A DNA stretch of 64,000 nucleotides from an uncultured delta proteobacterium (lineage in GTDB: Bacteria > Myxococcota > UBA727 > VGSZ01). Of the stretch, positions 7,949 through 52,202 are shown one piece after another (positions within the stretch are counted from its first letter, which is position 1; each line of letters opens with the position of its first letter). Location of the stretch: contig CAVZJB010000009.1 in the NCBI GenBank assembly GCA_963775425.1, forward strand, positions 272,616-336,615, read 5' to 3'. Made by a program: the position numbers and the translations under genes. The notes beneath the pieces are model-generated. The model did no database searches, was not told the origin of the DNA, and saw only the letters and a program-made list of their open reading frames with translations.

Positions 7949-8881
7949 CTACGGGCCGATGGACCAGGCGGCGAACGAGTCGAACGACGTCACCATGCGG
8001 TTGGACCGGAGCACGACGCCGCCGGCGGGCGTGGCGGTGGCGTCGACGACGGTGGCCACGCCCTCGAGCTGGCACTGCAGCGAGCCGTCGAGCACCGCGC
8101 GCAACAAGAGCGTGGGTCCGACGATCTGATCGGGGCTCGCGAGGTCGCTCGACGCGCGGAATTCGCTGGCGTCGTTGTTCACCAGCCCGTCGATGACGAG
8201 CGCCTGCGCGCCGTCGCCGATGACGGGGAAGCACATCACGCCGTCGGCGTCGCCGGTCATGCCGACGCCGATGCCCGCGCTCGCCGTGTTGAACTGGCCG
8301 CCGAGCTCGAAGCTCTCCACGGTGAAGCGGAGCTCGACGACGATGTGGTCGGTGGGGGCGATGTCGGTGCGCCGCAGGATCTCGGCGTCGGCGGTGGCCG
8401 TGTGATGAAGCTGATCGTTCGAGAGGCTCCATGAGCCGGCGCCGGTCCACGCCGACGAGAGCACCACGCCGTCGAACGCGTCGAACGCGATGAGCACGTC
8501 GCCGCCCTGGTCGGGCCGTGGGTCGCACGCGTCGCCGACGCCGTCGCCGTCGCTGTCGGCCTGGGCCGCGTCCGAGGTGGTGGGGCAGTCGTCGCAGCGG
8601 TCGGCGACGCCGTCGTTGTCCTCGTCGTGGGTGCCGCAGGGATCGCCTTCGCCTTCGCCCTCGCCGCCTTCGCCCTCGCCCTCGCCCTCGCCGAAGTCGG
8701 TGATGCAGTGTCCGTCGCGGCAGACGTGGCCTACGAAGCAGTCGCTGTCGGCGTTGCAGATGACGCCGCTGTCGTCGGGCGGGCAGCCGCTCGTCGCCAC
8801 GATCGCCACGAACACGAGCGCGGCGCGCGCGAGCGCCGCTACGGGCGCGGTGGCGAGGCCGGAGACCGGGGGGCGGCGCAT
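7949..8881 (-). CDS. Lipoprotein with thrombospondin type-3-like Ca-binding repeats and a GEGEGE linker
   Basis: ATG at 8879-8881. Signal peptide with lipobox ATSGC. DxDxDGxxDxxD repeats. Stop is TAG at 7949-7951. Confidence 0.65.
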   Translation of the reverse strand: MRRPPVSGLATAPVAALARAALVFVAIVATSGCPPDDSGVICNADSDCFVGHVCRDGHCITDFGEGEGEGEGGEGEGEGDPCGTHDEDNDGVADRCDDCPTTSDAAQADSDGDGVGDACDPRPDQGGDVLIAFDAFDGVVLSSAWTGAGSWSLSNDQLHHTATADAEILRRTDIAPTDHIVVELRFTVESFELGGQFNTASAGIGVGMTGDADGVMCFPVIGDGAQALVIDGLVNNDASEFRASSDLASPDQIVGPTLLLRAVLDGSLQCQLEGVATVVDATATPAGGVVLRSNRMVTSFDSFAAWSIGP

Positions 8882-33802: not shown

Positions 33803-34126
33803 TCACGAGCCGCGGTAGGTGGAGTAGCCGAAGGGCGACAGCAGGAGCGGCACGTGGAAGTGCTGGGCTGCGTCCTTCACCACGAACGTGATCTGGGCGT
33901 GGGGATAGAACGTGTCCTGCCCGCTCTTTGCGTAGTGCGCGCCGACATCGAACGTCAGGCGGTGCGTCCCGGCGCCGACCTCGGCGAACGTCTTCACGCG
34001 GCCGTCGTCGTCGGTGACGGCGCTCTGCCTGTCCCCGAGCGTTGCGCCGCTCTCCAGCGTGACGGCGACGCCGGCGGCGGGCTGGCCGCGCGAGATGTCG
34101 AGGACGTGGGTGGTGATGCGGGCCAT
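33803..34126 (-). CDS. hiuH: 5-hydroxyisourate hydrolase (transthyretin-like)
   Basis: 107-aa protein ending in the diagnostic YRGS tetrapeptide. ATG at 34124-34126. Confidence 0.8.
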   Translation of the reverse strand: MARITTHVLDISRGQPAAGVAVTLESGATLGDRQSAVTDDDGRVKTFAEVGAGTHRLTFDVGAHYAKSGQDTFYPHAQITFVVKDAAQHFHVPLLLSPFGYSTYRGS

Positions 34127-34247
34127 GCGTCGTCTCCGGTCCGTGGTGATGGTGCCGACAAGAGTGCCTCGACGGGACGATAGCGCGCCGGCAAGCTCGA
34201 GCGGACGGTCCGGCGTCGCGCGCGTCCCCCTCGTTGGCCTCGAGGCG

Positions 34248-35135
34248 ATGCGAGGCGCGTGCGCCGCACCCTGCGTGCTCAAGCAGCGCACCGCGCTCAT
34301 CGGCGTGGCCGCCTGGTGCATCGCCGCGTGGTGCGGGTGCGACCGCCCCGCGCACGGGGGCGCCTGCAACGAGGACTCGGATTGCGCGGGCGCCTCCTGC
34401 GTCCTCGGCGCGTGCGTGGTCCCGGCCGTGGTGTGCGGAGACGGCAAGCTCGACGCGGGCGAGCAGTGCGACGACGGCGCGCGCGCAGCCGGTGACGGCT
34501 GCGACGCCCGCTGCCTGATCGAGGCGGGCTGGGACTGCGGCGGCGCGCCGAGCGTCTGCCAGCGCTGTGGCGACGGGGTGCAACAGGGCACCGAGGCGTG
34601 CGACGACGGCGGGCTCGCGCCCGGCGACGGCTGCACCGCGGCGTGCTCCGTCGAGAGCGGCTACGCCTGCGCCGGCGCGCCGAGCGCGTGCGCCCCGGTG
34701 TGCGACGACGGCACGGCGACGCCGGCGACGGCTGCGACGAGAGCTGCGCGGTCGAGACGGGCTTTGCCTGCGACGACGGCGAGCCCTCGACGTGCATGGC
34801 CGTCTGTGGCGACGGGCTCGTGCGCGGCGCCGAGGGCTGCGACGACGCCAACGCCGCCGCCGGCTGCGACGCCGGCTGCACCCCGACCGTCGGCTTCGCG
34901 TGCGACGCCTCCGAGCCGTCGGTCTGCCGGACCTTGCAACGGGCGCGACCGCCTTGCACGGCGTCGACGCGAGCGAGCTTGTGCTCACGCCGACGGGCGC
35001 AACGCGATCCCCCCTCCCCGCGGTGGTCGCCGCCGCCGGTGCGCACGAGAGCCCTCCACACCGCTGCGAAGTCGCCACAGCGACACCGCTCCCAATTCCG
35101 TTTCGACTATTCCGCTATGCGGATCACTTCTCTAG
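34248..35135 (+). CDS. Myxococcus cysteine-rich repeat protein (CGDG...E.CDDG...GDGC units); a -1 frameshift near 34715 splits the repeats across two frames; true 3' end uncertain
   Basis: ATG at 34248 with a signal peptide. The repeats CGDGKLDAGEQCDDGARAAGDGC... continue in the -1 frame as DAGDGCDESCAVETGFACDDGEPSTC.... Confidence 0.45.
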   Translation: MRGACAAPCVLKQRTALIGVAAWCIAAWCGCDRPAHGGACNEDSDCAGASCVLGACVVPAVVCGDGKLDAGEQCDDGARAAGDGCDARCLIEAGWDCGGAPSVCQRCGDGVQQGTEACDDGGLAPGDGCTAACSVESGYACAGAPSACAPVCDDGTATPATAATRAARSRRALPATTASPRRAWPSVATGSCAAPRAATTPTPPPAATPAAPRPSASRATPPSRRSAGPCNGRDRLARRRRERACAHADGRNAIPPPRGGRRRRCAREPSTPLRSRHSDTAPNSVSTIPLCGSLL

Positions 35136-36652
35136 GCGAGCCTGGCCAACCGAAGCGCGGTGATCCTCTTCTGCTCCTCGGCCGCGTTCTTGATCTCGGC
35201 GTCGCGGTCGTTCTTCACGCGCTCCTCGAGGATGGCGAGCATCTCCGCCGCCGACTTCCCCGACGCCATCACGATGAAGATGAAGCCGTGCTTGGCGAAA
35301 TACGCGTCGTTTTGCGCGGCGAGGCGCGCCTTGACGTCGTCGACGGCGCCGCCGACGGCGCGCTGCTCGTCGTCGGACCACGCGCGGGACGCTGCCGTCG
35401 CTGCCGCGGCCGCTCCGCCGCCGATGCGCGGGTGCGCCGCGAAAGCCTCGAGCCAGTCGTCGGTGACGAGGGCGTTGAACGCGGCGCGCACCGACTCGTC
35501 CAAGGCGCTCGGCGCGAGGAACGGCCGCGCCGCCAGCATCTTCTTCGCCCACGTGCATGAGCCGCAGCAGGAGAGGAACGCCGCCTCCGCCTCGGCGGGC
35601 GGCATGGCGTTCAGGCGCTTGACGCGCAGGGCCGCGCGCTCGTCGTCGTCGACGCGGGCGAACACGCGGAAGCGCGCGACGCCGCCGTCGGGGTGGACGC
35701 GGAGGCGAACGTGCGACACCGCCGGTTGCGCGCCCGACAAGGGGAACACGTGCCGCGTGTGCGGCCGCAGTTGCGTGCGCGGGAACAGCTCGCGCCACTC
35801 GCCGTCTGCGGAGCTGCCGGCGTCGACCGCGAAGCTCTCGGGGCAGTTGCCCTTGAAGTGCGACGTGTCGACGACGAGCCGCGTGGGCGTCGACCGCGCG
35901 CCGAGCTTCACGACGGCCCAGTCGTAGCCCGCGCGGCGCGCGCGGCGGGTCTCCCACCCGTCGTGCATGCCGCCGCTGTGCCCGGGGAAGAGCAGGTTGT
36001 GGCGGGAGCCGAAGAACATGTCGCTGCAGGCGAGGACGACGCCACCGAGCTCGGCGCCGGACACCTCGAGCTCGCCGTCGAGGCCGCCGTGGAGACGGAA
36101 GTCGGGCAGGGGCTCGCCGTACACACGCAGCCGCGCGACGCCGCCGTCGGGGAAGATGCGCAGGCGCACGTGGGTGAAGCGGTACGGCGACGACACCGCG
36201 AAGTCGTTCTTGGCGTTGCCGAGGAGGGGCGAGCGCGGCAACAGCGGGAACCACTCCGCGTGCTTGGCGATCTCTTGCGCGCTCGGGTAGCCGTCCACGC
36301 TCGTGCCCTCGAGCGCGCAGTGCGACGGGAAGTTGCCGCGGAAGAACGCGGTGTCGACGACGACGCCGCGGATGACGCCCGGTGCCCCGAGCCGCACCAC
36401 GCAGAAGTCCTCGTGCCACTCACCGTCGCGCGCGCCGCTGTTCTCGCGGTGGCTGCGCCGGCTCTCCCAGCCGTCCATCCACTTGCCGCGGTCGGTGTAC
36501 GCGTCCTCGTCCCAGACGGGCTCCTTGGCCTTCACGAGGTTTTCCATGCCGGCGAAGAAGTCGTCGCTGCACACCACGGCGGCGCCGCCGAGCCGCTCGT
36601 TGGCCAGGTCGACGAGGTCCTCGAACGAAGCGATGGCGTGCGTCGTCGTCAT
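35132..36652 (-). CDS. Allantoicase (two allantoicase repeats) fused to OHCU decarboxylase
   Basis: N-terminal ~330 aa carries duplicated allantoicase motifs. C-terminal ~170 aa (AHPRIGG...FIFIVMASGKSAAEMLAILEERVKNDRDAEIKNAAEEQ) matches 2-oxo-4-hydroxy-4-carboxy-5-ureidoimidazoline decarboxylase. Confidence 0.75.
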   Translation of the reverse strand: MTTTHAIASFEDLVDLANERLGGAAVVCSDDFFAGMENLVKAKEPVWDEDAYTDRGKWMDGWESRRSHRENSGARDGEWHEDFCVVRLGAPGVIRGVVVDTAFFRGNFPSHCALEGTSVDGYPSAQEIAKHAEWFPLLPRSPLLGNAKNDFAVSSPYRFTHVRLRIFPDGGVARLRVYGEPLPDFRLHGGLDGELEVSGAELGGVVLACSDMFFGSRHNLLFPGHSGGMHDGWETRRARRAGYDWAVVKLGARSTPTRLVVDTSHFKGNCPESFAVDAGSSADGEWRELFPRTQLRPHTRHVFPLSGAQPAVSHVRLRVHPDGGVARFRVFARVDDDERAALRVKRLNAMPPAEAEAAFLSCCGSCTWAKKMLAARPFLAPSALDESVRAAFNALVTDDWLEAFAAHPRIGGGAAAAATAASRAWSDDEQRAVGGAVDDVKARLAAQNDAYFAKHGFIFIVMASGKSAAEMLAILEERVKNDRDAEIKNAAEEQKRITALRLARLA

Positions 36653-36709: not shown

Positions 36710-38164
36710 TCAACCGCGGCCGAGGATCAGCCGGCCGTCGCGCGCGGTGACGTCGTCGCCGCGGCGAAAGACCTGTTGCCCGCGCAGCCACGTGGAGCGC
36801 ACCACGCCGAACAGCTCGCGGCCGTGGTACGGCGTGAGCTTGTTCTTGTGCGCGAGCTTCTCCTGGTCGACGACGAAGGTCGCGTCGGGGTCGATGACGG
36901 CGAAGTCGGCGTCCTTGCCCTTGGCGATGCTCCCCTTGCGAGAGAGCCCCGCGAGGAGCGCGGGCTCTTCGCTCATCCAGCGCGCCACGTCGACGAGCGT
37001 CCGTCCGCGGGCGCGCGCGCCGGTCCACGTGGCGGGCAGCGTGAGCTGGAGCGAGGAGATGCCGCCCCACGCGGCGTCGAAGTCGCCGCGCTCGACCTGC
37101 TTGAGAGCGACGGTGCACGGCGAGTGGTCGCTGACCACGCTGTCGAGGACGCCGCGGGCGAGCGCGTCCCAGAGGGCGTCCTGGTTTTCGCGCTCGCGGA
37201 TGGGCGGCGTGCACTTGAACCAGGTGGCGCCGTCGTCGATCTCCTCGGCGCAAAACGACAGGTAGTGCGGGCAGGTCTCGACGGTGAGCGGCAGGCCGTC
37301 GTCGCGCGCGTCCTCCAGCAGGGCCAGGGCCTCCGACGACGAGTGATGCACGATGTGCACGGGCCCACCGCGGGCGCGACACATGCGGACCATGAGCTCG
37401 ACGGCGGCGTTCTCCGACGCCTTGGGCCGGCTCTCGAGGTGGAAGCGATAGCTCCGCCGCGACAAGGCGCCGGAGGCGAGGGCGGCCTCGAGCGCGTGCG
37501 CGGCCTCGTCGATGGGCCCCTGCAATTCGGCGTGGGCGAGCAACGGGGCGCGCGCGTCCCGCAGGATCCCGAGGGAGCGATCCAGGTCCGCCTCGGAGAC
37601 GTTCTTGAACTCGGGGACGCCCGAGTCGATGAGGAAGCACTTGAAGCCGAGCACGCCGCGCTCGACCAGCGGGACCAGGTCCTCGTGGTTCCCCGGCACC
37701 ACGCCGCCCCAGAAGCCGACGTCGACGGCGAGCTGGTTCTTGGCGGCGTCGAGCTTGTCCTCGAACGCGGCGACGCTCGTGGTGGGCGGCAGGGAATTGA
37801 GCGGCATGTCGACGAGGGTGGTGACGCCGCCGCGCGAGGCCGCTTGCGTGGCGGTGGCGAACCCCTCCCACGCCGTGCGCCCGGGCTCGTTCACGTGCAC
37901 GTGGCTGTCGACGAGGCCGGGCATCACGAGCGAATCGAGGAAGTCCACGACGTCGACGCCGACGGGCACGCGGCCGCGCTCAACGACGTCTACGATCGCG
38001 CCGCCGTCGTCGACGAGCACCGCCGCCGGCCGCACGGCGCCGCCGGTGACCACGCGCGTCGACGTGAACGCCCGCGCGATCCCCCCGGCGGGCGCGCCGC
38101 CGCGCCACGCCGAGCGACCCTCGTCGTGGCGTGGGGGCTTGTTGTCGCTCGCCCCCGTCGTCAC
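36710..38164 (-). CDS. allB: Allantoinase (cyclic amidohydrolase)
   Basis: DSHVHVNEPG metal-binding motif and amidohydrolase fold. GTG start overlaps the upstream stop (GTGA). The Arg-rich N-terminal extension of ORF 36710..38581 was rejected. Confidence 0.75.
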   Translation of the reverse strand: MTTGASDNKPPRHDEGRSAWRGGAPAGGIARAFTSTRVVTGGAVRPAAVLVDDGGAIVDVVERGRVPVGVDVVDFLDSLVMPGLVDSHVHVNEPGRTAWEGFATATQAASRGGVTTLVDMPLNSLPPTTSVAAFEDKLDAAKNQLAVDVGFWGGVVPGNHEDLVPLVERGVLGFKCFLIDSGVPEFKNVSEADLDRSLGILRDARAPLLAHAELQGPIDEAAHALEAALASGALSRRSYRFHLESRPKASENAAVELMVRMCRARGGPVHIVHHSSSEALALLEDARDDGLPLTVETCPHYLSFCAEEIDDGATWFKCTPPIRERENQDALWDALARGVLDSVVSDHSPCTVALKQVERGDFDAAWGGISSLQLTLPATWTGARARGRTLVDVARWMSEEPALLAGLSRKGSIAKGKDADFAVIDPDATFVVDQEKLAHKNKLTPYHGRELFGVVRSTWLRGQQVFRRGDDVTARDGRLILGRG

Positions 38165-39807
38165 GGCGCCCCCGCGGCCGCGGGGCCGAAGGCGAAGTCG
38201 GCGGTGACCTCGCCGCCGGCGGGCACCGTCACGTGCACCGTCTTCTTGCCGCCGGCGTCGCTCCACGCGGTGAGCTCGACGTCGCCGGCGGGGACGCCGT
38301 CGAGGACGAAGGCCCCGTCGTCCTTGGTGACGGCGAACCACGGGTCGTCGACGACGCCGATGTGGTTGATCATCCACGGGTGGATGTCGCAGCGCGTCTC
38401 CACCATCAGCTCGGGCGCACGGAACACCTTGGTGTCCCGCTGCCCCTGCGCGGGCTGGTTGATGCTGAAGGTGTCGTTGTTTTGCGCCACCGAGCGGATG
38501 TTGTGAAAGACCGGGTCGGTGTTCACGAAGGTGACGGGCTGTCCCACGCGCACGCCGCTCACGCGCGGCTGGTAGAGGCACCCCTTCTGCTCGACGGTGA
38601 CCTCGCCCTGCGGCGCGGGGATGGCGTACTTGTCGACGCCGCCGGTGACGGCGACGAACGCCTCCGCGAGCTTTCCGTCATGAACGACCGCGGCGGGGAT
38701 GGACAGCGGCCCGTCGTGGCCGGCCTCACAGCCGCCGTAGAGCGCCACCTCGCGTGGCGCGGGGACGTCCCCCTGCCATGTGACGCTGCCGCGGATGCGG
38801 CCGGTGGCCGTGATGGGCGTGCCCGTCTTGGCTGCGTTCACGACGGGCGCGGCGCGGTCGTGGTCCGAGGCCAGCGTGCCCGCGACGGACGCGACGATGG
38901 TGACGACGACGAGCGTGCCGAGGAAGCCGAGCATGACCGTGGCCGGCGGGTCCACCTTGTTCATCCACCACTTCACGCCGGCGCCGGCGCAGCAGACCAC
39001 GACGAGGATCACCCAGTTCCACCCGATGGTGGTGCCGGCCACGTGGGCGGCGGCGCCGTAGGTGAACGGGAAGTGGTTGGAGATCATGATGAAGATGACC
39101 GGGTAGGTCATGTAGTGGTTGTGCTTGCTGCGGCGCTTGGCCGAGTACGCCTTGGCCGCGTCGGGCTCCTTGCCCGTCTTCACGCTCTCGACGAGGTTTC
39201 GCTGCGCCGGGATGATGCGCATCCAGACGTTGGCCACCATGCACGTGCCCATCACCGCCGCGGTGTGGATGTACGCCGCGCGGCCCGACAGGAGGTGCGT
39301 GAACGCGAAGGCGATGGCCGCGAGGCCGATGACCGAGATGGCCACCGTGAGCGGCGGGTTCTGCGACGCGGCGCCGGCGAGCCGGGAGGACCACAGGAGG
39401 TCGTAGGCGACCCAAGCGACGACGAGCGTGCCCATGCAGATGGCGGTGGCCACCTGATGCGAGACCACCGGGTGAGCGGCGTCGACGAGGAGGACGCCGC
39501 CGCCGAGGTGGTAGAGCACGATGAGGAGGAAGAAGCCGGTCATCCAGGTGAACGCGGCCTCCCACTTGAACCAGTGAAGCGTCGACGGCAGCGCGCTCGG
39601 CGCCACCAGCTTCTTTTCGACCTCGTAGAAGCCGCCGGAGTGCACCATCCACAGGACTCCCTCGAGCCCCTCCCGCTTCTCCTTGGGCTTCTCCATGTGG
39701 CTGTCGAGCCAATGGAAGAAGATGGACGAGCCGATCCACATGATGCCGGCGATGAGGTGCGCCCAACGCAGGACGAGGTTCAAGCCTTCACTGACGAGCG
39801 GATTCAT
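38161..39807 (-). CDS. PuuD-like (DUF989) integral membrane protein fused to a periplasmic type-1 copper cupredoxin domain; candidate membrane urate hydroxylase
   Basis: N-terminal ~330-aa multi-TM domain resembling urate hydroxylase PuuD. C-terminal TFVNTDPVFHN...ETRCDIHPWM carries a His/Cys-x2-His-x2-Met blue-copper site. Confidence 0.6.
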   Translation of the reverse strand: MNPLVSEGLNLVLRWAHLIAGIMWIGSSIFFHWLDSHMEKPKEKREGLEGVLWMVHSGGFYEVEKKLVAPSALPSTLHWFKWEAAFTWMTGFFLLIVLYHLGGGVLLVDAAHPVVSHQVATAICMGTLVVAWVAYDLLWSSRLAGAASQNPPLTVAISVIGLAAIAFAFTHLLSGRAAYIHTAAVMGTCMVANVWMRIIPAQRNLVESVKTGKEPDAAKAYSAKRRSKHNHYMTYPVIFIMISNHFPFTYGAAAHVAGTTIGWNWVILVVVCCAGAGVKWWMNKVDPPATVMLGFLGTLVVVTIVASVAGTLASDHDRAAPVVNAAKTGTPITATGRIRGSVTWQGDVPAPREVALYGGCEAGHDGPLSIPAAVVHDGKLAEAFVAVTGGVDKYAIPAPQGEVTVEQKGCLYQPRVSGVRVGQPVTFVNTDPVFHNIRSVAQNNDTFSINQPAQGQRDTKVFRAPELMVETRCDIHPWMINHIGVVDDPWFAVTKDDGAFVLDGVPAGDVELTAWSDAGGKKTVHVTVPAGGEVTADFAFGPAAAGAP

Positions 39808-40495
39808 CGACGATCTCTTTCGCGCTGAAGGTGTTGTCTGCCCAGGTATGCACGGGCACGCGGCGCGCGTCGAGGAGCGCGGTGCGCACCGGGTGGGCGA
39901 TGGCGCCGTCGGCGCCCGCGACGCCGTAGACGTTGAAGAGCGACGCGAACGCCTCCACCACGTCGGGCGCGCCCGTGGCGAGGGTGAACCCCGCGTCGCC
40001 GGCGACCGCGAAGCGCGCCGCGTACGCGCGCAGCGCCGCCGGCGTGTCCCGCGCCGGATCGAGCGTGACGACGAGGACGCGGGCGCCGTCGCGGCGTGCC
40101 TCGGCGAGCTTCTTCATGGTGAGCGGACACATGGTCTCGACGGGGCAGTGCGTATAGACAAAGCCCACGGCGACGGGCCCGGCGACGTCACCAAGCTCGA
40201 ACGCTTGCCCGTCCTGGTCGACGAGCGGAAACGACGGCACCGGTTGTCCGGGCCGCCACGCGGCGACGTCGGCGCGCCAGGCGTCGTGGCTGCGACAGGA
40301 CGTGAGCGCGAGCGCGGCGCCGAGGAGCGCGGCGCACACCGTCGGCCACGAGGCACGTTCGTCAGGGCGCACCTGGGGGCCAATAGCGGCGATGACGGCG
40401 GGTGCCAACGGCGGGGGCGCGCGGCGCCGTGAGGTCGGAGGCAACACGAGCGCGCCCACGCTGTGACGGTAGCGCGCCCGAGCGGGCGTGGGCAT
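39788..40495 (-). CDS. SCO1/SenC-like thioredoxin-fold copper chaperone lipoprotein
   Basis: Lipobox LALTSC and a YTHCPVETMCP motif in a thioredoxin-like fold. Its stop overlaps the PuuD-like gene start. Confidence 0.6.
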   Translation of the reverse strand: MPTPARARYRHSVGALVLPPTSRRRAPPPLAPAVIAAIGPQVRPDERASWPTVCAALLGAALALTSCRSHDAWRADVAAWRPGQPVPSFPLVDQDGQAFELGDVAGPVAVGFVYTHCPVETMCPLTMKKLAEARRDGARVLVVTLDPARDTPAALRAYAARFAVAGDAGFTLATGAPDVVEAFASLFNVYGVAGADGAIAHPVRTALLDARRVPVHTWADNTFSAKEIVDESARQ

Positions 40496-40560: not shown

Positions 40561-41922
40561 ATGAGCAACACGTCGCTGCCCCCCACGTTCCTCGCCGAGA
40601 CCACCGCGCGCCTGCGGGCCGCCAACGAGCCCGTCACCCGTCGCTTCGTCGGCGAGAGCGCCTCACGCCAGCCGGTGCACACGGTCTACGGCGGGGCGCA
40701 GCTCTTCAAGAAGGACGCGGCGTGGAAGCTCGGCCGCGGCGCGCTCAAGGCGCTCGACGAGTACGCGCCCTCGGCGGACGTGTTCGCGCGCGCCGCGGGC
40801 ATCCGCGCCGACGTCGCCGGCGTCGTGTACGAGCGCGTGCGCGAGAAGCTCGTGCGCGAGCCCGTCGAGGACATGCGCATCGACTTCGAGGACGGCTACG
40901 GCAACCGCCCCGACGACGAAGAAGACGCCGAGGCGGTGCGCTGCGCGCACGAGGTGGCCGCCGGCATGAAGGATCCGCGCGCGCCGGGCAGCGGGCTGCC
41001 GCCGTTCATCGGCATTCGCATCAAGACCTTCTCGGACGAGCTGTTCGCGCGCGCGGTGCGCACCCTCGACCTTTTCGTGAGCGCGCTCGTCAAAGACACC
41101 GGCGGTAAGCTGCCGGACGGCTTCGTCATCACGCAGCCGAAGATCACCACGGCCGAGCACGTCGCCGTCCTCGCCGACGTCCTCGAAGCGCTGGAGGAGC
41201 GCCTCGGCCTGTCGTCGGGGGCGTTGCAGCTCGAGGTGATGATCGAGGCGACGCAGTCCATCCTGGACATCGACGGCAGGATCGCCCTGCCCAGGATCCT
41301 CGACGCCGCGCGCGGCCGCTGCGTGGCCGCGCACTTCGGGACCTACGACTACACCGCGTCCAACAACATCACCGCCGCGTACCAGTCCATGGAGCACGCG
41401 GTCTGCGACTTCGCCCGCACCTTCATGTTGCAGGCGTACGCGGGCACGGGCGTGTGGCTCAGCGACGGAGCCACCAACGTGATGCCGGTGCCGGTGCACC
41501 GCGCGGCCGACGGCCACGCGCTCACCGCCGCGCAGGTCGCCGAGAACGTGTCGGTGGTGCACGCGGCGTGGGCGCTGCACGTGCGCCACATCCGCCACTC
41601 GCTGGAAAACGGCTACTACCAGGGCTGGGACCTCCACCCCGCGCAGCTCCCCACGCGCTACGGCGCGCTCTACGCGTTCTTCCTCGAGGCGCTCCCCGCG
41701 GCGAGCGAGCGCCTGAAGAACTTCGTGCAGAAGGCCGCGCAGGCCACGCTCGTGGGCGACGTCTTCGACGACGCCGCCACGGGCCAGGGCCTGTTGAACT
41801 TCTTCCTGCGCGGCATCAACTGCGGCGCCCTCAAGGAGGACGAGGCCCTCGCCACGGGCCTCACCCTCGACGAGCTGCGCGGCCGCAGCTTCGTCAAGAT
41901 CTTGAAGAACCGTCGGGGTTGA
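40561..41922 (+). CDS. HpcH/HpaI aldolase - citrate lyase beta (CitE)-like family protein
   Basis: ATG at 40561. GYYQGWDLHPAQL resembles the CitE/malyl-CoA lyase G..GK..IHP.Q motif. Confidence 0.5.
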   Translation: MSNTSLPPTFLAETTARLRAANEPVTRRFVGESASRQPVHTVYGGAQLFKKDAAWKLGRGALKALDEYAPSADVFARAAGIRADVAGVVYERVREKLVREPVEDMRIDFEDGYGNRPDDEEDAEAVRCAHEVAAGMKDPRAPGSGLPPFIGIRIKTFSDELFARAVRTLDLFVSALVKDTGGKLPDGFVITQPKITTAEHVAVLADVLEALEERLGLSSGALQLEVMIEATQSILDIDGRIALPRILDAARGRCVAAHFGTYDYTASNNITAAYQSMEHAVCDFARTFMLQAYAGTGVWLSDGATNVMPVPVHRAADGHALTAAQVAENVSVVHAAWALHVRHIRHSLENGYYQGWDLHPAQLPTRYGALYAFFLEALPAASERLKNFVQKAAQATLVGDVFDDAATGQGLLNFFLRGINCGALKEDEALATGLTLDELRGRSFVKILKNRRG

Positions 41923-44906: not shown

Positions 44907-45707
44907 ATGCGCTTCTTCAAGATCACCCGCGAGATCCTGCCGCGCTGGCAGGAGAAGCTCGAGGCGCTCGAGCAACTGAGCGTCTATCCCCTCGGCGCCG
45001 ACGCCTTTCGCCTCACGCACGGCGCGGACTACTTCGCGTTCTTCGAGCGCATGGGCGAGGTCCACTACTACGCGATCGAGGAGGGCGGCGCGCTCGCCGC
45101 GGTCGCTTGCGGCGTGTTGCGGCCGGCGTCGGTGCGGGCGCCGCGTCGCTGGTACGCCGCGGACCTGAAGGTGCACCCGGCCTTTCGTGGGAGACACCTG
45201 CCGATCACGCTGCTCCGCCGCGCGTTCCTCCAAAACTGGCTCCGCTGCGGGCGCGGGTACGCGGTGGCGATGGACCCGTCCGACGGGCGCGTGCCTCCGG
45301 GGGTGCGGCTGATGGCGCACTTCAAGTGGATCCCGATGTCATTGATGGCGCTCGCCAAGATCGACGTCTACGCCGCCGACGAGCACGGGATGAAGCGCGC
45401 CGCGCCGCTCATCGCGCGTGGAGGCGTGCGGCCTCGATACGTATCGCTCGCAGGGGTCAAGGACCTCGTGCTCGAGAGCTCCAAGGCGCCGCTCGATCTT
45501 CTTCACGTGTCGTTTGCGCCCACCGGCGACGACCGGGTCTACGAGGCGCCGCAACGCGGGGCCACGCACATGTGGTGCGTGCCACGTGAGCACGCGCTGG
45601 CCGGCGCGCTCGCCGCCGAGGGCTTCACGCCCACGGCGAGCGCGACGCTCTTGCACCACCGGCTCGCGCGTATGGATTGGGCGACGCTCGAGACCTGCGA
45701 GATCTGA
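44907..45707 (+). CDS. GNAT-like acyltransferase family protein (putative)
   Basis: WYAADLKVHPAFRGRHL resembles the GNAT acyl-CoA binding motif (R/Q-x-x-G-x-G/A). Confidence 0.4.
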   Translation: MRFFKITREILPRWQEKLEALEQLSVYPLGADAFRLTHGADYFAFFERMGEVHYYAIEEGGALAAVACGVLRPASVRAPRRWYAADLKVHPAFRGRHLPITLLRRAFLQNWLRCGRGYAVAMDPSDGRVPPGVRLMAHFKWIPMSLMALAKIDVYAADEHGMKRAAPLIARGGVRPRYVSLAGVKDLVLESSKAPLDLLHVSFAPTGDDRVYEAPQRGATHMWCVPREHALAGALAAEGFTPTASATLLHHRLARMDWATLETCEI

Positions 45708-45709
45708 AC

Positions 45710-47662
45710 GTGTGCGGCATCGTCGCCGTCCTGCGCCTCGGCGAGCGTCCGCTGCCCGGGGACGACGCGGTACGCGCGATGACCCGAGCCATCGCTCACC
45801 GCGGCCCCGACGGCGAAGGCTTCCATCGCGACGACGACGTCGCGCTCGGCGTGGTGCGGCTGGCGGTCGTCGACGTCGGGCACGGGCGGCAGCCGGCGCG
45901 CGGCTGCCGCGGCGCCGGGCCCGTGTCCGTCGTGAACGGCGAGCTCTACGAGCACCGCCCGCTGCGCGCGGAGCTCGCCGCGCGGCACGAGATCGTCGAC
46001 GCGTGCGACGCCACGCTGCTGCCGCATTTGTACGAGGACCACGGCGCCAACATGGTGCTGCACATGCACGGCATGTTCGCCTTTGCGCTGTGGGACCGGC
46101 GCGAGCGCACGCTGCTCCTCGGCCGCGACCGCCTCGGCATCAAACCGCTCTTCTTCGCCGTCACGCCCGACTTCCTCGTTGCTGCGTCGGAGGCAAAGGC
46201 GATCTTCGCCTCCGGCCTCGTCCAGCCGCGCATCGATCGCGACGCCGTCGACGACCTCTTCTCCCTGGGGTACCCGTGCCCGCCGCGCACGATGTTCGCC
46301 GGCGTCACTGCGGTGCCCCCGGGGCACACGGTGACGGCTCGCGCGGGCGGCGGCGCACAGCGAGGCCGCGTCGACGCCGCTCGCCGCTACTGGCGCGCGC
46401 CGCTGTCTCCGCCGGCGCACACCGGCCAACGAGGGTCGCCCGCGGGGTCGGCCGCCGACGTCCACGACGCCCTCGCCGCCGCCTTGCGCACGCACCTCGA
46501 CGCCGACGTCCCCGTGGCCACGTGGCTGTCCGGAGGGCTCGACTCGTCCGCGGTCTCGGCGCTCGCGCGCGAGGCCGCCGGCGCGCCGCTCCCCGCGTTC
46601 GCGCTCACGTTCCCGGGAGACCCCGAGGGGCTCGACGAGAGCGCACCCGCGCGCGCCGTCGCCCGCTTCCTCGGCGCGGACCTGGACGAGGTGCCCATGG
46701 GAGCTCCGGCGGCTTCGTTGCTCGAGCGCATGACGTGGCACCTCGAGCTCCCGCTCCTCGTCCCCGGCGCGCTCGGCGGCCTCCTGCTCTCCGAGCGGCA
46801 GCGCGCGCGAGGCTTCAAGGTCACGCTCACCGGCGACGGTGCCGATGAGGTGCTCGGCGGCTACGACGTGTTTCGCGCGAGCCGCGCGCGCCGGCTCCTC
46901 GGGGCGCGCGCGTTCTCCGCCGCCGTCGTCGCGGGCGACGCGCTCGGCCTCCTCTCGCCGCGCGGCATCGGTGCGTTCCTCGCGCAAAACGCCCGCGCGC
47001 CACGGACGGACATCGTCGCCCGCGCGTACGGCGGCGTGCGCCCACCCTGGCTCGAGCAGTGGGCGCTCCTCGACGTCGAGCGCGCGGCGCTCCTGTCGCC
47101 CGACGGCAGGCGCGTGCGCCCGATCGAAGAGGCGCCCGCGGGCTTCGCCGCTTTGGTGCGCGAGGACGCCGTCGCGCTCGATCCGCTCGACGCCGAGATC
47201 GCGCTGGAGCTGGAGACGCGCCTGCCCGCGTGGATCCTGGTCATCGGTGATCGCTCATCGATGGCCCACGGGGTCGAGGCCCGCTTGCCGTTCCTCGACG
47301 ACGACGTCGTGCGCACGCTCCTCGCCGTCCGGCCGGCGCTGAAGATGCGCGGGATGCGCGAGAAGGCCGTGCTGCGCGACGCCGTCGCGGGGCTGCTGCC
47401 GCGCGCCATCGTGCGGCGCAGGAAGCAGCCGTTCATGACGCCGATCGCGCCGTGGTTCTTCCCGCCGGGAGCTACGCCGCCCGCCCTGACGCGCGCGCGG
47501 CTCGAGGACGCCGGGCTGTTCGACGCCGCCGTCGTCGCGCGGCTCCTCACGCGTCTGCACACCTCGCGCCCCGGGACGCTCGAGCGCGTCCGGCTGGAGA
47601 TGGTGCTGATGCTCGTCCTCGGGACGCAGCTCCTGCACGCGTCTTTCGTGGCCAGGGCTTAG
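45710..47662 (+). CDS. Asparagine synthetase (glutamine-hydrolysing) family amidotransferase / amide- or beta-lactam-synthetase-like
   Basis: GTG start followed by Cys2 (MCGIVAV), as in Ntn glutaminases. PP-loop WLSGGLDSS. ~650 aa. Confidence 0.8.
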   Translation: MCGIVAVLRLGERPLPGDDAVRAMTRAIAHRGPDGEGFHRDDDVALGVVRLAVVDVGHGRQPARGCRGAGPVSVVNGELYEHRPLRAELAARHEIVDACDATLLPHLYEDHGANMVLHMHGMFAFALWDRRERTLLLGRDRLGIKPLFFAVTPDFLVAASEAKAIFASGLVQPRIDRDAVDDLFSLGYPCPPRTMFAGVTAVPPGHTVTARAGGGAQRGRVDAARRYWRAPLSPPAHTGQRGSPAGSAADVHDALAAALRTHLDADVPVATWLSGGLDSSAVSALAREAAGAPLPAFALTFPGDPEGLDESAPARAVARFLGADLDEVPMGAPAASLLERMTWHLELPLLVPGALGGLLLSERQRARGFKVTLTGDGADEVLGGYDVFRASRARRLLGARAFSAAVVAGDALGLLSPRGIGAFLAQNARAPRTDIVARAYGGVRPPWLEQWALLDVERAALLSPDGRRVRPIEEAPAGFAALVREDAVALDPLDAEIALELETRLPAWILVIGDRSSMAHGVEARLPFLDDDVVRTLLAVRPALKMRGMREKAVLRDAVAGLLPRAIVRRRKQPFMTPIAPWFFPPGATPPALTRARLEDAGLFDAAVVARLLTRLHTSRPGTLERVRLEMVLMLVLGTQLLHASFVARA

Positions 47663-47829
47663 GGCCCCCGAATGAACAACTCGATCGCCCTCGCGGCCGA
47701 TCCATCGCCGCTGGCTTCGTTGCTCGTCGGTCACGTGGCGACGGCCACGCTCCCTCCTCGCGCCTCGCCATCGGCGCGCCTCGACCGCGATCATCGACCG
47801 ACTTGTTCATTCGAGGGCCCTTAGCCCTC
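47653..47829. mobile_element. MITE-like palindromic element: ~34-bp imperfect terminal inverted repeats (GGGCCCCCGAATGAACAA / TTGTTCATTCGAGGGCCC) flanking ~100 bp, bounded by TTAG on both sides, lying exactly between two convergent TAG stops
   Basis: Seen in sequence: left arm 47653-47686, right arm 47789-47829; ~30 of 34 positions are complementary. Confidence 0.45.
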
Positions 47830-50800
47830 TAGATCGCGTCGGCCGCGCCGACGTCGGCCTGCGGGGCGGCGGCGAGGGAGCGCGGACGCGCGGGGCGCTT
47901 GTCGACGACCTCGTCGATGAGGCCCGTGATGCACGTGGCCATGCGCTCGATGTTCTCGCTCCGAAACAGCTCGAGGTGCGAGCCCTTCACCGTGACGACG
48001 TCGATGCGACCCTTGACCCAGCGGCGCCAGCCGTTGGTGGGATCGTCCATGCGCGTGGCCGGCCAGCGGAAGGGATGCTCGGCGACAAAGAGCAGGAGCG
48101 GCGCCGTCTCTCCGTTCTGTTTGGGCATGTACGCGAGCTGGGCCTGCGTGAGGATGGCCCAGATCTGCTTCATGCGATCTTCGCGCTCACGGTCGGCGCC
48201 GTCGACGGCGGGCGCGAGCAGCTCGCCGAGGCCGAGCTTGAAGAGCAAGCGGCGGCGCACGTTGTCGATGCGATCCTTCACGTAGTTGAAGCGGCCCAAG
48301 GCGTCACGCCTGCGCAGCTCCTCGACATGCGCGAGCGCGCGCTCCATGCGCGGAAGCTTCTCGGGATAGCCGGGCGCGAAGGCGTCGAACGCGACGATGG
48401 CGCCGACGTTCTTCCCGCGCCGGCGCAGCCGGTGCGCGAGCTCGTAGGCGACCATGGCCCCGAAGCTGTAGCCGCCGACGACGAGCTGCTGCCCCGACAG
48501 CCCGCGCGCGTCGAGCTCGCGCTCGTAGGCCGCGGCGATCTCCTCGACCGACTCGCGTGGCAGGTCTTCGCCGTCGGCGCCGATGGCGGTGAAGGCGTAG
48601 ACGGGTTGATCGGGCCCGAGCCGCTGCGCGAGCTCGCGAAAGATGAACACCTGGCCGCCCGCGCCGGACACGATGAGCAGCGGCGGGCGCGTCCCGTGCG
48701 CGTTCAACACGACGAGGTGGCTCTGCGGCTCGGACGTCGCGCGCTCGCCGTCGCCGAGGCTCTGCGCGAGCGCGGCGATGGTGGGCTTCGCCAGGATGCG
48801 CGACAGCGGGACGTTGATGCCCAGCTCCTTCTTCAGCCGCGACACCACCACGACCGCGAGCAGCGAGTGGCCGCCCATGTCGTCGAAGAAGTCGTCGTGA
48901 ACACCCACCGGCGCGCGCAAGACGTCGCTCCACAGGGCGACGAGCTTCTCCTCGAGCGGGGTGCGCGGTGGGGACAGCGCGCGCCGCTCGAGGACGAGCG
49001 CCGGATCAGGGAGCGCCGCGCGGTCGAGCTTGCCGTTGGAGGTGACCGGCAGGCGGTCGAGCCGCACCAGGGCCGAAGGCACCATGAAGTCCGGCAGCGC
49101 CGCAGCCACCGCCGCCTTCAACGACGGCGCGTCGAAGGGCTGCGCCGCATGGAGCGGCACGACGTACGCCACCACGGCCTTCGCGCCGGAGGCGTCGGGG
49201 CGCGCGACGCACACGACGTCGCGCACGCCGGGCTGCTTGCGCAGCACGGCTTCGATCTCGCCGAGCTCGACGCGGAAGCCGCGCACCTTCACCTGGAAGT
49301 CGGCGCGCCCGAGGAACTCCATGGTGCCGTCGTCCCAGAAGCGCGCGAGGTCGCCCGTCTTGTAGATGCGCTCGCCCGGGAGGAACGGATCGGGGAGGAA
49401 CCGCTCGGCGGTGAGCTCCTCGCGGTTGAGGTAGCCGTCGGCGAGGCAGAGGCCGCCGATGTAGAGGTCGCCGGCGATGCCGGTGGGCGCCGGGCGCATG
49501 TGGCGATCGAGGATGTAGTAGCGGGCGTTGTCGATGGGACGGCCGTAGGGGATGGAGCGCCACGACGGGTCTACGTGGCCGATGCGGTGGAAGTTCGACC
49601 AGATGGCGGCCTCGGTGGCGCCGCCGAACGACACGGGTTCCACACCCTCGAACACCTCGCGCAGGTGGTCGGGCAGCTTGACCGGGATCCAGTCGCCGGA
49701 CATGAGCGCGAGCCGCAGCGTCGACGACGGCGCGCGCGCCGGAAAGAACGGCGCGAGCCGCGCCAGCGCCGGCGGCGCGGAGTCCCAGATGGTGATGCCG
49801 GGCGCGGTGAGCTTCTTCACCAGGAGCTCCGGCTCGCGCAGCGTCTCCACCGAAGCGATCTCGACGACGGCGCCGGCGCCGAGCGCGCCGAAGACGTCGT
49901 AGACGGACAGGTCGAAGCTCGGGGACGTGACGAACAAGAGCTTGTCGCGCGGGCCGACGCTGAAGGTGCGGTTCACCCACTGCAGCGTGTTCGTCACCGC
50001 GCGGTGCGTGAGCACCACGCCCTTGGGCCTGCCGGTGCTGCCCGACGTGTAGATGGCGTAGCTCACGTCCCTCGAGGCGGCGACGCGCGCGGGCCGGGTG
50101 TCGGGAGCGCCCTGCACGTCCGCGCCGTCGACGCCCAGGATGGGGATGCCCGGCGGCGGCGCGCCGTCGCCGTGGCCCCACGGCAGCGACGACGACGTCA
50201 CCACCGCCACCGCTCGCGCGTCTTCGACCATGAAGCGCGCGCGCTCTTCGGGGTAGCCCGGGTCCACGGGCACATATGCCGCACCGGACTTGGCGATGCC
50301 GATCATCGTGGTGACGAGGTCGAAGTTGCGGTCGAGCAGGAACGCCACGTATTGGCCGGGCTTCACCCCGCGGGCGCGCAGCGCGTGGGCGAGGCGGTTG
50401 GCGCGCCGCTCCACCTCGGCGAAGGTGAGCGTCTCTCCCTCGAATTCCAGGGCGACGTCGTCAGGCCGCGCGTCCACCTGCTCCTCGAAGAGCGTGTGGA
50501 TGAGGATCTCGTCTGAAAACGGCGCGGCCGTGTCGTTCCAGCCGAAGACCTGCCGCTTGCGGGTCTCGTCGTCGAGGAGGTCGACGCGCGCGAGGGGCTT
50601 TTCGGGATCCGCCGCGACCTGCGCGCACACCGCGGAGATCTGCTCCACCAGCGCGCGCACGCGGGGCGTGTCGACCGCGCCTTCGTCGACGACGAGCGAC
50701 GCCTGTCCGCCGCTCAGGCGCAGCGCCAGGACCGCGCCCGGCGGGAGGGCCTCGCCGTCGTCGAGCAGGACGGCCACGCACGACAGCGCGCTCGTCTGGA

Positions 50801-52202
50801 GCGCGCGGCTGGGGGAGAGCACAGGGGTACGCGCGACGAGGTCGACGAGGTAGCCGCCGCGGCGGCGGAGCTCGTCGAGGTCCTTTCGCACCGCGCGCAC
50901 CAGCTCCGCGAAGCCGCGCCCCGCGTCCAGGCCGACGAACAACGGGACGGTGGGCGCCAACAAGGCCGAGGCGGCTTCGAAGCGCTTGCGCACGGGGCCG
51001 TCTACGAGGGCGACGCACAGCTCGTCGCGGTCGCACAGCGTGGCCATGGCGAAGGAGAACGCGGCGGTGGCTGCGGCCTCGATGTCATCGGCGAAGCGCG
51101 AGCGCAGCTCGGGCAGGGGGAGCGAGTGCACCGACGTTTGTCCCGGCGGCCCCGCCGCCGACAAGAACGGCACCGCCGGCGACTCCGCGCGCGCGAGGCG
51201 CTTGACGAAGAACGGCTCGGCCTCGGCGATCTCGCGGGTGATCGCCGCGCGGCCCTCGCGTCCGGGATCGACGATCTGTCCACCGGGCTTGAGTCCCAGG
51301 TAGTGCAGCGCCTCCTCGACGGAGATCTCGACTCCGCTCAGGAGCGACGTCCGCTCCACGCGCAGCGCCCCCTGGGCGCACGCCACCACGAAGGAGCGGG
51401 CGTCGGCCTCGAGGACGGTGCCCGGGCCCCCGCCCGCGCCGGACACCGACGCCTCACGCACGACCACCGCGCGCTCCCCCGCCGACGTCTTGTGCACGAG
51501 CTTGGCGAGGGCGAAGCGGTTGATGTACGGGCCCCAGTCGCAGGCGCGCACGAGCCGGTCGAGCTCGGCGGCCGTCTGGCTCCAGTCGAGAGTGGCCAGG
51601 GCCGCGGGGCGATCGTGACGCGAGAAGATCAGCCGCTCGCCGCCGGGGTTCGTCCCCTTCGGCTGGGGGATGCCCGGCGGCGCGCCGTGCTCGAGCTTCT
51701 CGACGAGAGACTTGAAGGCGTCGAGCGCGAGCGCGGCGTTCTTGATGTTGAGGGAGACGGAGCTCTCGCGCTCCTCGATGTCGACGTCGCGGCGCTCGAG
51801 GATGTCGCCGGTGTCGATGCCGTCGGCGAGGCGATGCCACACCACGGCGTGCGTGCGCTCGCCGCGCAGGAGCGCCCACGCCGAGCCGTGAATGCCCGCG
51901 TAGCGGGGCAGCGGTCCGTCGTGGAAATTGACGGCGTCGATGCGCGCCTTGGTGAAGTGCTCGGCCTTGAGGATGGCGGGGTACGTGATGGACAAGAGGA
52001 CGTCGATGTCGCCGGCGGCCATGAGCTCACCGATGCGCGCGCGCCCGTAGACCGGCACGTCCTTGCCCCGCGCCCACTCGGCGAGGGCCGGGTTGAGCGT
52101 GACGAGGCCGGCGAGGGCGTGCCCCCGCTCCAGGAGGAGCTCGCCGCACGAGACGGCGAGCGGCTCTTCTCCGAGGACGAGGCAGCGAAGGTGCGCGGGC
52201 AC
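47829..52202 (-). CDS. Non-ribosomal peptide synthetase, single module: formyltransferase-like domain, ~260-aa C-domain-like linker lacking HHxxxDG, adenylation, PCP, thioesterase
   Basis: Fmt-like NFHDGPLPRYAG. A-domain motifs YTSGSTGRPKG, YKTGDL, GRADFQVKVRGFRVELGEIE, NGKLDR. PCP motif DDMGGHSLL. TE motif GYSFG. Confidence 0.9.
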   Translation of the reverse strand: MPAHLRCLVLGEEPLAVSCGELLLERGHALAGLVTLNPALAEWARGKDVPVYGRARIGELMAAGDIDVLLSITYPAILKAEHFTKARIDAVNFHDGPLPRYAGIHGSAWALLRGERTHAVVWHRLADGIDTGDILERRDVDIEERESSVSLNIKNAALALDAFKSLVEKLEHGAPPGIPQPKGTNPGGERLIFSRHDRPAALATLDWSQTAAELDRLVRACDWGPYINRFALAKLVHKTSAGERAVVVREASVSGAGGGPGTVLEADARSFVVACAQGALRVERTSLLSGVEISVEEALHYLGLKPGGQIVDPGREGRAAITREIAEAEPFFVKRLARAESPAVPFLSAAGPPGQTSVHSLPLPELRSRFADDIEAAATAAFSFAMATLCDRDELCVALVDGPVRKRFEAASALLAPTVPLFVGLDAGRGFAELVRAVRKDLDELRRRGGYLVDLVARTPVLSPSRALQTSALSCVAVLLDDGEALPPGAVLALRLSGGQASLVVDEGAVDTPRVRALVEQISAVCAQVAADPEKPLARVDLLDDETRKRQVFGWNDTAAPFSDEILIHTLFEEQVDARPDDVALEFEGETLTFAEVERRANRLAHALRARGVKPGQYVAFLLDRNFDLVTTMIGIAKSGAAYVPVDPGYPEERARFMVEDARAVAVVTSSSLPWGHGDGAPPPGIPILGVDGADVQGAPDTRPARVAASRDVSYAIYTSGSTGRPKGVVLTHRAVTNTLQWVNRTFSVGPRDKLLFVTSPSFDLSVYDVFGALGAGAVVEIASVETLREPELLVKKLTAPGITIWDSAPPALARLAPFFPARAPSSTLRLALMSGDWIPVKLPDHLREVFEGVEPVSFGGATEAAIWSNFHRIGHVDPSWRSIPYGRPIDNARYYILDRHMRPAPTGIAGDLYIGGLCLADGYLNREELTAERFLPDPFLPGERIYKTGDLARFWDDGTMEFLGRADFQVKVRGFRVELGEIEAVLRKQPGVRDVVCVARPDASGAKAVVAYVVPLHAAQPFDAPSLKAAVAAALPDFMVPSALVRLDRLPVTSNGKLDRAALPDPALVLERRALSPPRTPLEEKLVALWSDVLRAPVGVHDDFFDDMGGHSLLAVVVVSRLKKELGINVPLSRILAKPTIAALAQSLGDGERATSEPQSHLVVLNAHGTRPPLLIVSGAGGQVFIFRELAQRLGPDQPVYAFTAIGADGEDLPRESVEEIAAAYERELDARGLSGQQLVVGGYSFGAMVAYELAHRLRRRGKNVGAIVAFDAFAPGYPEKLPRMERALAHVEELRRRDALGRFNYVKDRIDNVRRRLLFKLGLGELLAPAVDGADREREDRMKQIWAILTQAQLAYMPKQNGETAPLLLFVAEHPFRWPATRMDDPTNGWRRWVKGRIDVVTVKGSHLELFRSENIERMATCITGLIDEVVDKRPARPRSLAAAPQADVGAADAI

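Follow-up and report, generated by a model that had tools for sequence, protein, structure and literature searches.

A candidate copper-type PuuD, with a predicted tethered cupredoxin in place of cytochrome c, in a myxococcotal purine-catabolism cluster

PuuD, the urate oxidase that prevails among diderm bacteria, owes its functional assignment to genetic proof; no H2O2 response accompanies the activity, and the published topology is N-out/C-out (Doniselli et al. 2015, PMC4562309). In the same work, which alone defines the family, a cytochrome c domain with a CxxCH motif and a distal Met was stated to be invariant in PuuD, and this invariance was used to argue that the domain is essential. Short DUF989 forms were described besides full-length PuuD, and copper is not mentioned (PMC4562309). 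Here, we describe a 64,000-nucleotide stretch of DNA (the window) from an uncultured delta proteobacterium of the Myxococcota (assembly GCA_963775425.1, contig CAVZJB010000009.1, positions 272,616 to 336,615), in which a puuD-like gene encodes a DUF989 membrane domain followed by a periplasmic module that resembles type-1 copper proteins. This copper-type PuuD has the sequence features of PuuD/Urate_ox_N proteins in all but the cytochrome c domain. We found no description of it in the literature searched, and a search on Sco/cupredoxin maturation likewise returned nothing specific; the sequence family itself is already in databases under automatic names, and what we did not find described in the literature searched is the variant and its implications.

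The closest described system is PuuD of Agrobacterium fabrum (COG3748, PMC4562309). Both proteins have a full-length 8-helix DUF989 domain in which the same residues are conserved, both are N-out/C-out, with a one-electron carrier domain in the periplasm after helix 8, and both are encoded in a urate-degradation cluster with hiuH and 2-oxo-4-hydroxy-4-carboxy-5-ureidoimidazoline (OHCU) decarboxylase genes (urah, urad). They differ in the carrier, which is a ~210-aa copper module here and a ~80-aa c-type cytochrome in A. fabrum, and in maturation, as a SCO gene is linked here whereas the cytochrome c form depends on the cytochrome c maturation (Ccm) system. We propose, with a probability of about 0.72, that the window encodes a PuuD-type urate oxidase (urate dehydrogenase/hydroxylase) in which a tethered type-1 copper acceptor would do the job of cytochrome c. 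Cytochrome c6 and plastocyanin, or cytochrome c and pseudoazurin, interchange elsewhere as haem or blue-copper carriers in the same high-potential one-electron job, and this familiar theme lessens the surprise of a copper-type PuuD. Unlike the cytochrome c6/plastocyanin interchange, the PuuD carriers are fused domains of different orthologues and not a soluble pair switched by copper within one organism.

Membrane domain and copper module

The puuD-like gene (38161-39807, minus strand) was defined from its open reading frame (ORF), its translation, a match to Pfam PF06181 and an AlphaFold2 (AF2) model of the 548-aa product. GC content at third codon positions is 0.96 in this ORF and 0.87 in the SCO-like ORF next to it, in a window of ~72% GC, which argues that both are genuine coding frames. 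The original prediction, made from the letters of the sequence alone, had read a PuuD-like DUF989 domain in the N-terminal part, and this is borne out by a nearly full-length match to PF06181 (Urate_ox_N, formerly DUF989) with an E-value of 3.7e-95 and 319.2 bits against a gathering cut-off of 26.9. The match spans residues 6-305 (38893-39792, minus strand; profile positions 4-290 of 295) and takes in helices 1-7 and part of helix 8. In the AF2 model, which was built with 72 aligned homologues and has a predicted local distance difference test score (pLDDT) of 90.6 and a predicted template modelling score of 0.87, eight long helices are present, as in the full-length DUF989 form and not the short 4-helix form. 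Lys and Arg residues number 6, 1, 8, and 1 in loops 1, 3, 5, and 7 and 0, 1, and 0 in loops 2, 4, and 6; by the positive-inside rule, this gives an N-out/C-out protein and thus places the C-terminal domain in the periplasm. The window protein also keeps the conserved PuuD residues of helices I, II, V, and VI and of the cytosolic loops: in an alignment of 115 sequences covering all three PuuD architectures (copper, cytochrome c, and domain-less), conservation reaches 90% or more in ~36 residue columns, and the window protein departs from just one of these (G183A). No column of this three-architecture alignment separates the membrane domains of the copper form from those of the cytochrome c form. 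The original prediction had noted that the cluster contains no soluble uricase, and none was detected in the window: the uricase PROSITE motif occurs in none of the six frames, and Pfam finds no uricase among the 22 window ORFs scanned.

The periplasmic module comprises residues 335-540 (38188-38805, minus strand). In the model, a cupredoxin core (approximately residues 400-487; 38347-38610, minus strand) appears to be nested inside a transthyretin-like or CarboxypepD_reg-like beta-sandwich, making a module of ~210 aa in all. The module is modelled with a pLDDT of 94.3, and its cupredoxin has the Greek-key fold. The motif TFVNTDPVFHN begins at residue 426 and CDIHPWM at residue 473, so that the presumed copper ligands, His435 (in FHN; 38503-38505, minus strand) and, 38 residues on, the loop Cys473-x2-His476-x2-Met479 (38371-38391, minus strand), are spaced as in amicyanin. 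Among 120 full-length homologues that are 38-73% identical to the window protein, His435 is kept in 119, Cys473 in 119, His476 in 118, Met479 in 119, and the Trp of the loop in all 120. No CxxCH occurs anywhere in the 548-aa protein, whose cysteines are at 124, 189, 272, 273, 360, 410, and 473. A complete type-1 copper site in a C-terminal cupredoxin, with no haem motif, was what the original prediction had claimed, and the fold, the amicyanin alignment, and the conservation of the Cys, His, and Met ligands all bear it out. In addition, Cys360 (120/120) and Cys410 (119/120) form an extra cysteine pair (span 38578-38730, minus strand) that is also invariant in stand-alone proteins of the module family, and from this conservation a Cys360-Cys410 disulfide is probable.

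Comparisons with known structures point the same way. A phmmer search of PDB sequences retrieved the Nitrosopumilus type-1 copper protein 5fc9 (E 1e-5), and a 25-sequence profile of the module matched amicyanin over its full length (E 2.7e-7), with HN aligned to HN and C..HP.M to C..HP.M. With the model as query, the top Foldseek matches were all cupredoxins (5fc9, amicyanin, plastocyanin, and pseudoazurin; E 1e-6 to 1e-4, target template modelling score ~0.7), and NirKs with a tethered cupredoxin (6hbe, 9cck) were among the best structural matches. The module nevertheless differs from amicyanin, plastocyanin, and 5fc9: its identity to them is only 22-29%, it forms part of a membrane enzyme, it seems to sit inside a second beta-sandwich, and it has the extra Cys pair, and 5fc9 has Arg where the window protein has the axial Met. 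The three-domain NirKs (6hbe, 9cck) have an unrelated catalytic domain, and their tethered domain donates electrons, whereas here it would accept them. Other three-domain NirKs carry a tethered cytochrome c.

If the protein works as we propose, the DUF989 domain that it shares with the Agrobacterium enzyme would turn urate into 5-hydroxyisourate at the inner face of the membrane, following the topology argument of PMC4562309, and the product would be processed further by HiuH and OHCU decarboxylase, both cytosolic, and by allantoinase and allantoicase. Helix 8 would return the chain to the periplasm, where the ~210-residue module would sit, and two electrons would cross the membrane domain via a cofactor to reach the type-1 copper (His435, Cys473, His476, and Met479) one at a time. 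The copper would then be re-oxidised into the respiratory chain, most likely by the CuA site of a haem-copper oxidase, or by a soluble carrier.

The SCO-like lipoprotein

Directly upstream of puuD lies a gene for a SCO1/SenC-family lipoprotein (39788-40372, minus strand; longest ORF to 40495, 235 aa). It is assigned by PF02630 (E 4.7e-17, 62.6 bits against a gathering cut-off of 22.8), by matches to PDB Sco proteins of Streptomyces, Bradyrhizobium, and Bacillus (E 2.5e-9 to 4e-3), and by its lipobox. The GTG at 40372 is the probable start, since it gives a lipoprotein signal ending in LALTSC, with the lipobox after a hydrophobic stretch; homologues are 180-190 aa long, compared with the 235 aa of the longest ORF. 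The overlap with puuD that the original prediction reported amounts to 20 nt and is identical in two syntenic relatives (loci L081 and L082). On the other side, the GTG start of the allantoinase gene overlaps the puuD stop codon (GTGA), and the equivalent 4-nt overlap is found in L081. puuD is thus translationally coupled both to the SCO-like gene upstream and to the allantoinase gene downstream.

The cysteine spacing, which the original prediction had singled out as unusual, is genuine. In Sco alignments, YTHCPVETMCP aligns to YTHCP--DVCP, and a two-residue insertion turns the canonical CPDVC (CxxxC) into CPVETMC (C-x5-C; 40127-40147, minus strand). This spacing is conserved in 14/14 of the nearest SCO homologues, a subfamily that keeps the His ligand. 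The His at the copper-ligand position is His201 in long-ORF numbering (AIAHPV; 39893-39895, minus strand); in alignment A3, which includes canonical CPDVC Sco proteins, this distal His (H160 in A3 numbering) is at least 90% conserved, the DPxxDTP motif is kept, and T103, D105, P106, and D109 are invariant. The protein therefore resembles YpmQ (1on4), the Streptomyces lividans Sco (4bpy), and Bradyrhizobium ScoI (4wbj) in its SCO1/SenC thioredoxin-like fold, its DPxxDTP motif, its two Cys and distal His, and its anchor. It differs from them in having C-x5-C and not CxxxC, and in that its gene is linked to a purine-catabolism cupredoxin enzyme and not to cytochrome oxidase genes. Other C-x5-C SCO proteins (CPLPDFC-like; P0144, P0157, P0164, and P0169) carry PF11604, a CusF-like copper-binding domain, as a fusion.

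A hidden Markov model (HMM) built from the SCO sequences was searched against puuD loci, and linkage was evaluated with Fisher's test. Five copper-type loci (L001, L067, L081, L082, and L087; 5/25 as entered in the test) have a SCO gene directly upstream of puuD, none was found beside the puuD genes of ~61 cytochrome c or domain-less loci (p 0.0015), and all five of these SCO genes encode C-x5-C followed by Pro. The linkage is specific to copper-type puuD. Most likely, this lipoprotein, which would be co-transcribed with puuD, prepares the periplasmic copper site, whether as a Cu(I) donor or by holding the ligand cysteine in its reduced state.

An alternative is that the SCO-like protein is a thiol-disulfide oxidoreductase, which keeps Cys473 reduced or handles the Cys360-Cys410 pair, and not a copper donor, the copper arriving by another route. 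Thiol-disulfide activity has been proposed for Sco proteins, and in Bradyrhizobium both ScoI and CoxB are reduced by TlpA; the thioredoxin fold and the weak matches of our protein to the AhpC-TSA and Redoxin families fit such a role. So does the presence, next to a SCO-less copper-type puuD in locus L085, of a 219-aa thioredoxin-like lipoprotein with a WCSGC motif (5250-5909, minus strand), and in locus L083, which also has no SCO gene there, of a 226-aa uncharacterised lipoprotein-sized gene at the equivalent position (7231-7911, minus strand). However, the Cys, Cys, His triad that binds copper in Sco proteins is kept, the CusF-like fusions place C-x5-C SCOs in a copper-binding context, and C-x5-C would be atypical as a redox-active thioredoxin motif. 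We consider a purely thiol-directed role unlikely, while regarding it as the most serious of the competing explanations. The SCO protein may also act on thiols in addition to delivering copper.

PuuD architectures and the copper module across genomes

There are at least 120 clusters of full-length copper-type homologues, and the best 120 were examined; these are 520-590 aa long at ~99% coverage, and come from Myxococcota, Polyangiales, Labilithrix, Bdellovibrionales, and Xenobia. They carry names such as 'uncharacterized membrane protein/plastocyanin' (JGI) and 'urate hydroxylase PuuD' (NCBI). In a survey of 80 species-representative genome loci, 18 encode copper-type PuuD (530-570 aa; Bdellovibrionota, Myxococcota, and others), 31 encode PuuD with a CxxCH cytochrome c domain (~400-430 aa; varied, including Alphaproteobacteria, Polyangiales, and Gemmatimonadota), 29 encode a domain-less PuuD that ends after helix 7 (265-290 aa; mostly Acidobacteriota, some Polyangia), and two are of no clear type. 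All three types adjoin hiuH and allantoicase/OHCU decarboxylase genes. For the copper type, hiuH is usually directly downstream, and most of its genes are in purine-catabolism clusters with hiuH, allantoicase/OHCU decarboxylase, or allantoinase alongside, so the copper form recurs widely in the setting in which the original prediction found it. Synteny is kept in relatives that are 43-69% identical. For example, L081 and L082 (64-69% identical) have the same order, DUF6986 / SCO - puuD - allantoinase - allantoicase/OHCU decarboxylase - hiuH, with the same overlaps, and the cluster of L083 (48% identical) has xanthine dehydrogenase genes in addition. The domain-less proteins are found in L033, L035, L039, L040, L043, L044, and 23 other loci (at ~8001-8800 in each), often end in AAKFIRRA, and adjoin hiuH and allantoicase genes in Acidobacteriota, Thermoanaerobaculia, and some Polyangia. 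In one further locus, L086, a DUF989 gene has no purine genes nearby.

The copper-type and domain-less forms contradict the published invariance of the cytochrome c domain, and suggest a catalytic unit that stays constant, the membrane domain, with an interchangeable carrier in the periplasm. In a neighbour-joining tree of the membrane domain, copper forms are paraphyletic: both the cytochrome c forms and the domain-less ones branch from within them. This pattern points to modular exchange of the periplasmic domain and does not fix the direction of the exchange; the tree itself is a rough one that carries no support values and was sampled with a bias towards copper forms. The part of the original prediction that saw copper replacing haem therefore holds in that a copper module stands where cytochrome c is found in other PuuDs, and not as a statement about which came first. 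A single origin of the copper form was considered and set aside, given its paraphyly in this tree.

The module is not confined to PuuD. When residues 330-548 were searched against 1.84 billion representative proteins, 376 representatives matched at E < 1e-30 and 4708 at E < 1e-10, many of them ~240-265 aa long. We rejected the idea that all stand-alone modules of ~260 aa are gene fragments, since P0208, P0344, P0349, and P0219 carry signal peptides or lipoboxes, the first three of them on contigs of 26-137 kb. Some stand-alone-looking modules are PuuD fragments, namely P0205, P0211, P0223, and P0248; the cluster of P0234 includes a 550-aa member, and P0197 begins at the MNK that precedes helix 8. 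Fusions to other enzymes also occur. P0301 (502 aa) consists of a signal peptide, the module, and a cytochrome oxidase subunit II (COX2_TM and COX2, with an intact CuA motif, CAEFCGLGHYRM), and in P0342 (661 aa) the module follows a pyrroloquinoline quinone (PQQ)-like beta-propeller at the C-terminus. The caa3-type oxidases and the quinohaemoprotein alcohol dehydrogenases have a cytochrome c fused at these positions. Taken with the structural matches to NirKs with a tethered cupredoxin, these two fusions suggest that the module is a one-electron carrier equivalent to cytochrome c and able to talk to CuA. Two other arrangements were seen, with two modules in tandem in P0231 and, in P0306, a multi-helix membrane domain of unassigned family after the module. 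In locus L084 (4340-6780), the stand-alone lipoprotein P0208 is encoded two genes from a 259-aa DUF989 protein that does not have the WMVHSGGFY hairpin; between them is a gene for a probable Cys-rich helix-turn-helix-type regulator (read from the sequence; it has no Pfam match), and there is no purine context. L084 may be a different DUF989 system with the same copper partner.

A wider reading, which we offer tentatively and think somewhat likelier to fail than to hold, is that the nested-cupredoxin module defines a widespread family of periplasmic copper carriers that would do the work of cytochrome c in stand-alone lipoproteins, PuuD, CuA-containing oxidase subunits II, and PQQ-like propellers, that copper PuuD would feed a haem-copper oxidase directly, and that the cytochrome c form may be no older than the copper form. 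If so, the domain-less PuuDs would imply that DUF989 has a transmembrane redox cofactor of its own. This unnamed carrier family also bears on the wiring of periplasmic electron transfer in Myxococcota, Bdellovibrionota, and other groups.

Several points weigh against a tethered copper acceptor in the window protein. The original prediction proposed profile searches for both domains, and while the DUF989 profile matches, no Pfam cupredoxin model (PF00127, PF13473) does so at E up to 0.1; the amicyanin model TIGR02657 of NCBIfam scores 13.2 bits against a cut-off of 110. The cupredoxin of copper-type PuuD is a divergent subfamily with no curated model. In addition, ~95% of fused and stand-alone modules have a His/His/Glu triad (positions 488, 516, and 517; in HP[YWF]F after the last cupredoxin strand and in WHE in the sandwich), which is perhaps a second metal site or an interdomain network. 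The window protein has Asp488/Ser516/Asp517 (codons within 38245-38346), and may thus be an atypical copy; its 72%-identical relative P0003 has Asn/Ser/Asp, and this joint loss suggests that the three residues act together and that this copy manages without them. The SCO link, specific as it is, covers only about one fifth of copper-type loci, most of which have no adjacent SCO gene, and two have a WCxxC thioredoxin-like lipoprotein in its place. Domain-less PuuDs lie in purine clusters, and neither tblastn nor motif scans found a cupredoxin or cytochrome c gene near them (~3 kb downstream, 8-kb flanks), which suggests that a periplasmic domain is maybe not essential for catalysis. What the analysis shows is the identity of the domains, their fold, the conservation of the ligands, the topology by the positive-inside rule, the gene linkage, and the distribution; urate oxidation, copper binding, the course and end point of electron flow, and the SCO role are inferred.

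The domain-less forms also lend weight to an alternative in which the module is an accessory and not the obligatory electron exit; electrons would pass from DUF989 to quinone, O2, or a cofactor of its own, and the module would scavenge (e.g. superoxide), tune, or regulate. In 29/80 loci, such a PuuD is encoded beside hiuH and allantoicase genes with no carrier gene detected nearby, and Doniselli et al. name superoxide scavenging as another possible role of the cytochrome c domain and report no specific azide inhibition (PMC4562309). Against this, the four copper ligands are near-invariant across sequences that are only 38-73% identical, the module is also fused to a CuA oxidase subunit, and a ccmC phenotype that PMC4562309 cites speaks for an indispensable carrier in the cytochrome c forms. 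We consider an accessory module improbable. It is less probable still, to the point of being hard to credit, that the 548-aa protein is a DUF989 paralogue with another substrate or a transport role and a coincidental place in the cluster: DUF989 does occur outside purine contexts (the hairpin-less L084 protein, L086, and the short forms in PMC4562309) and no NCBIfam PuuD model matches the 548-aa protein, but the protein matches the full Pfam profile, hairpin included, with all but one cross-type conserved column, and is coupled to allantoinase in a complete and syntenically conserved urate-to-ureidoglycolate cluster with no uricase motif elsewhere in the window.

As a urate oxidase with a tethered copper acceptor, copper-type PuuD would link purine nitrogen recycling to copper availability. 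It would also offer experimental handles, namely a blue-copper spectroscopic reporter tethered to the enzyme, a copper- rather than Ccm-dependent phenotype, and a dedicated SCO-type accessory gene.

Neighbouring genes in the window

The remaining genes of the purine-catabolism cluster, as named by the original prediction, were all found by Pfam or by sequence. Downstream of puuD and on the same strand are an allantoinase-like amidohydrolase (36710-38164, minus strand; PF01979 and PF07969, and the junction sequence), an allantoicase fused to OHCU decarboxylase (35132-36652, minus strand; PF03561 with E 1.6e-92 and PF09349 with E 2.5e-41), and hiuH, encoding the transthyretin-like 5-hydroxyisourate hydrolase (33803-34126, minus strand). 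The HiuH protein ends in YRGS, its homologues stand beside puuD in most related loci, and those of L081-L083 are assigned to PF00576. Upstream and divergent is a gene for a DUF6986 protein, a malate synthase/HpcH-like TIM barrel (40561-41922, plus strand, start probable; PF22484 with E 4.9e-180). This gene neighbours puuD clusters of all three architectures, with 50-60% identity in many loci, and may serve an unassigned step in ureidoglycolate or glyoxylate handling. Between hiuH and the allantoicase gene, on the opposite strand, sits a Cys-rich ORF with DUF4215-type repeats (CDDGN...GDGC; 34014-35135, plus strand), which is not present in the syntenic loci L081 and L082. DUF4215-type repeats are typical of Myxococcota.

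Further away, the window contains a gene for a single-module protein of 1457 aa that resembles nonribosomal peptide synthetases (47829-52202, minus strand), with an N-terminal formyltransferase, adenylation, peptidyl carrier protein, and thioesterase domains; an asparagine synthase-like gene (45677-47662) adjoins it. A 641-aa protein (55139-57064, minus strand) has weak matches to di-haem cytochrome c peroxidases and RoxA and is syntenic with a similar gene in L081, which suggests that this genome probably makes c-type cytochromes too.

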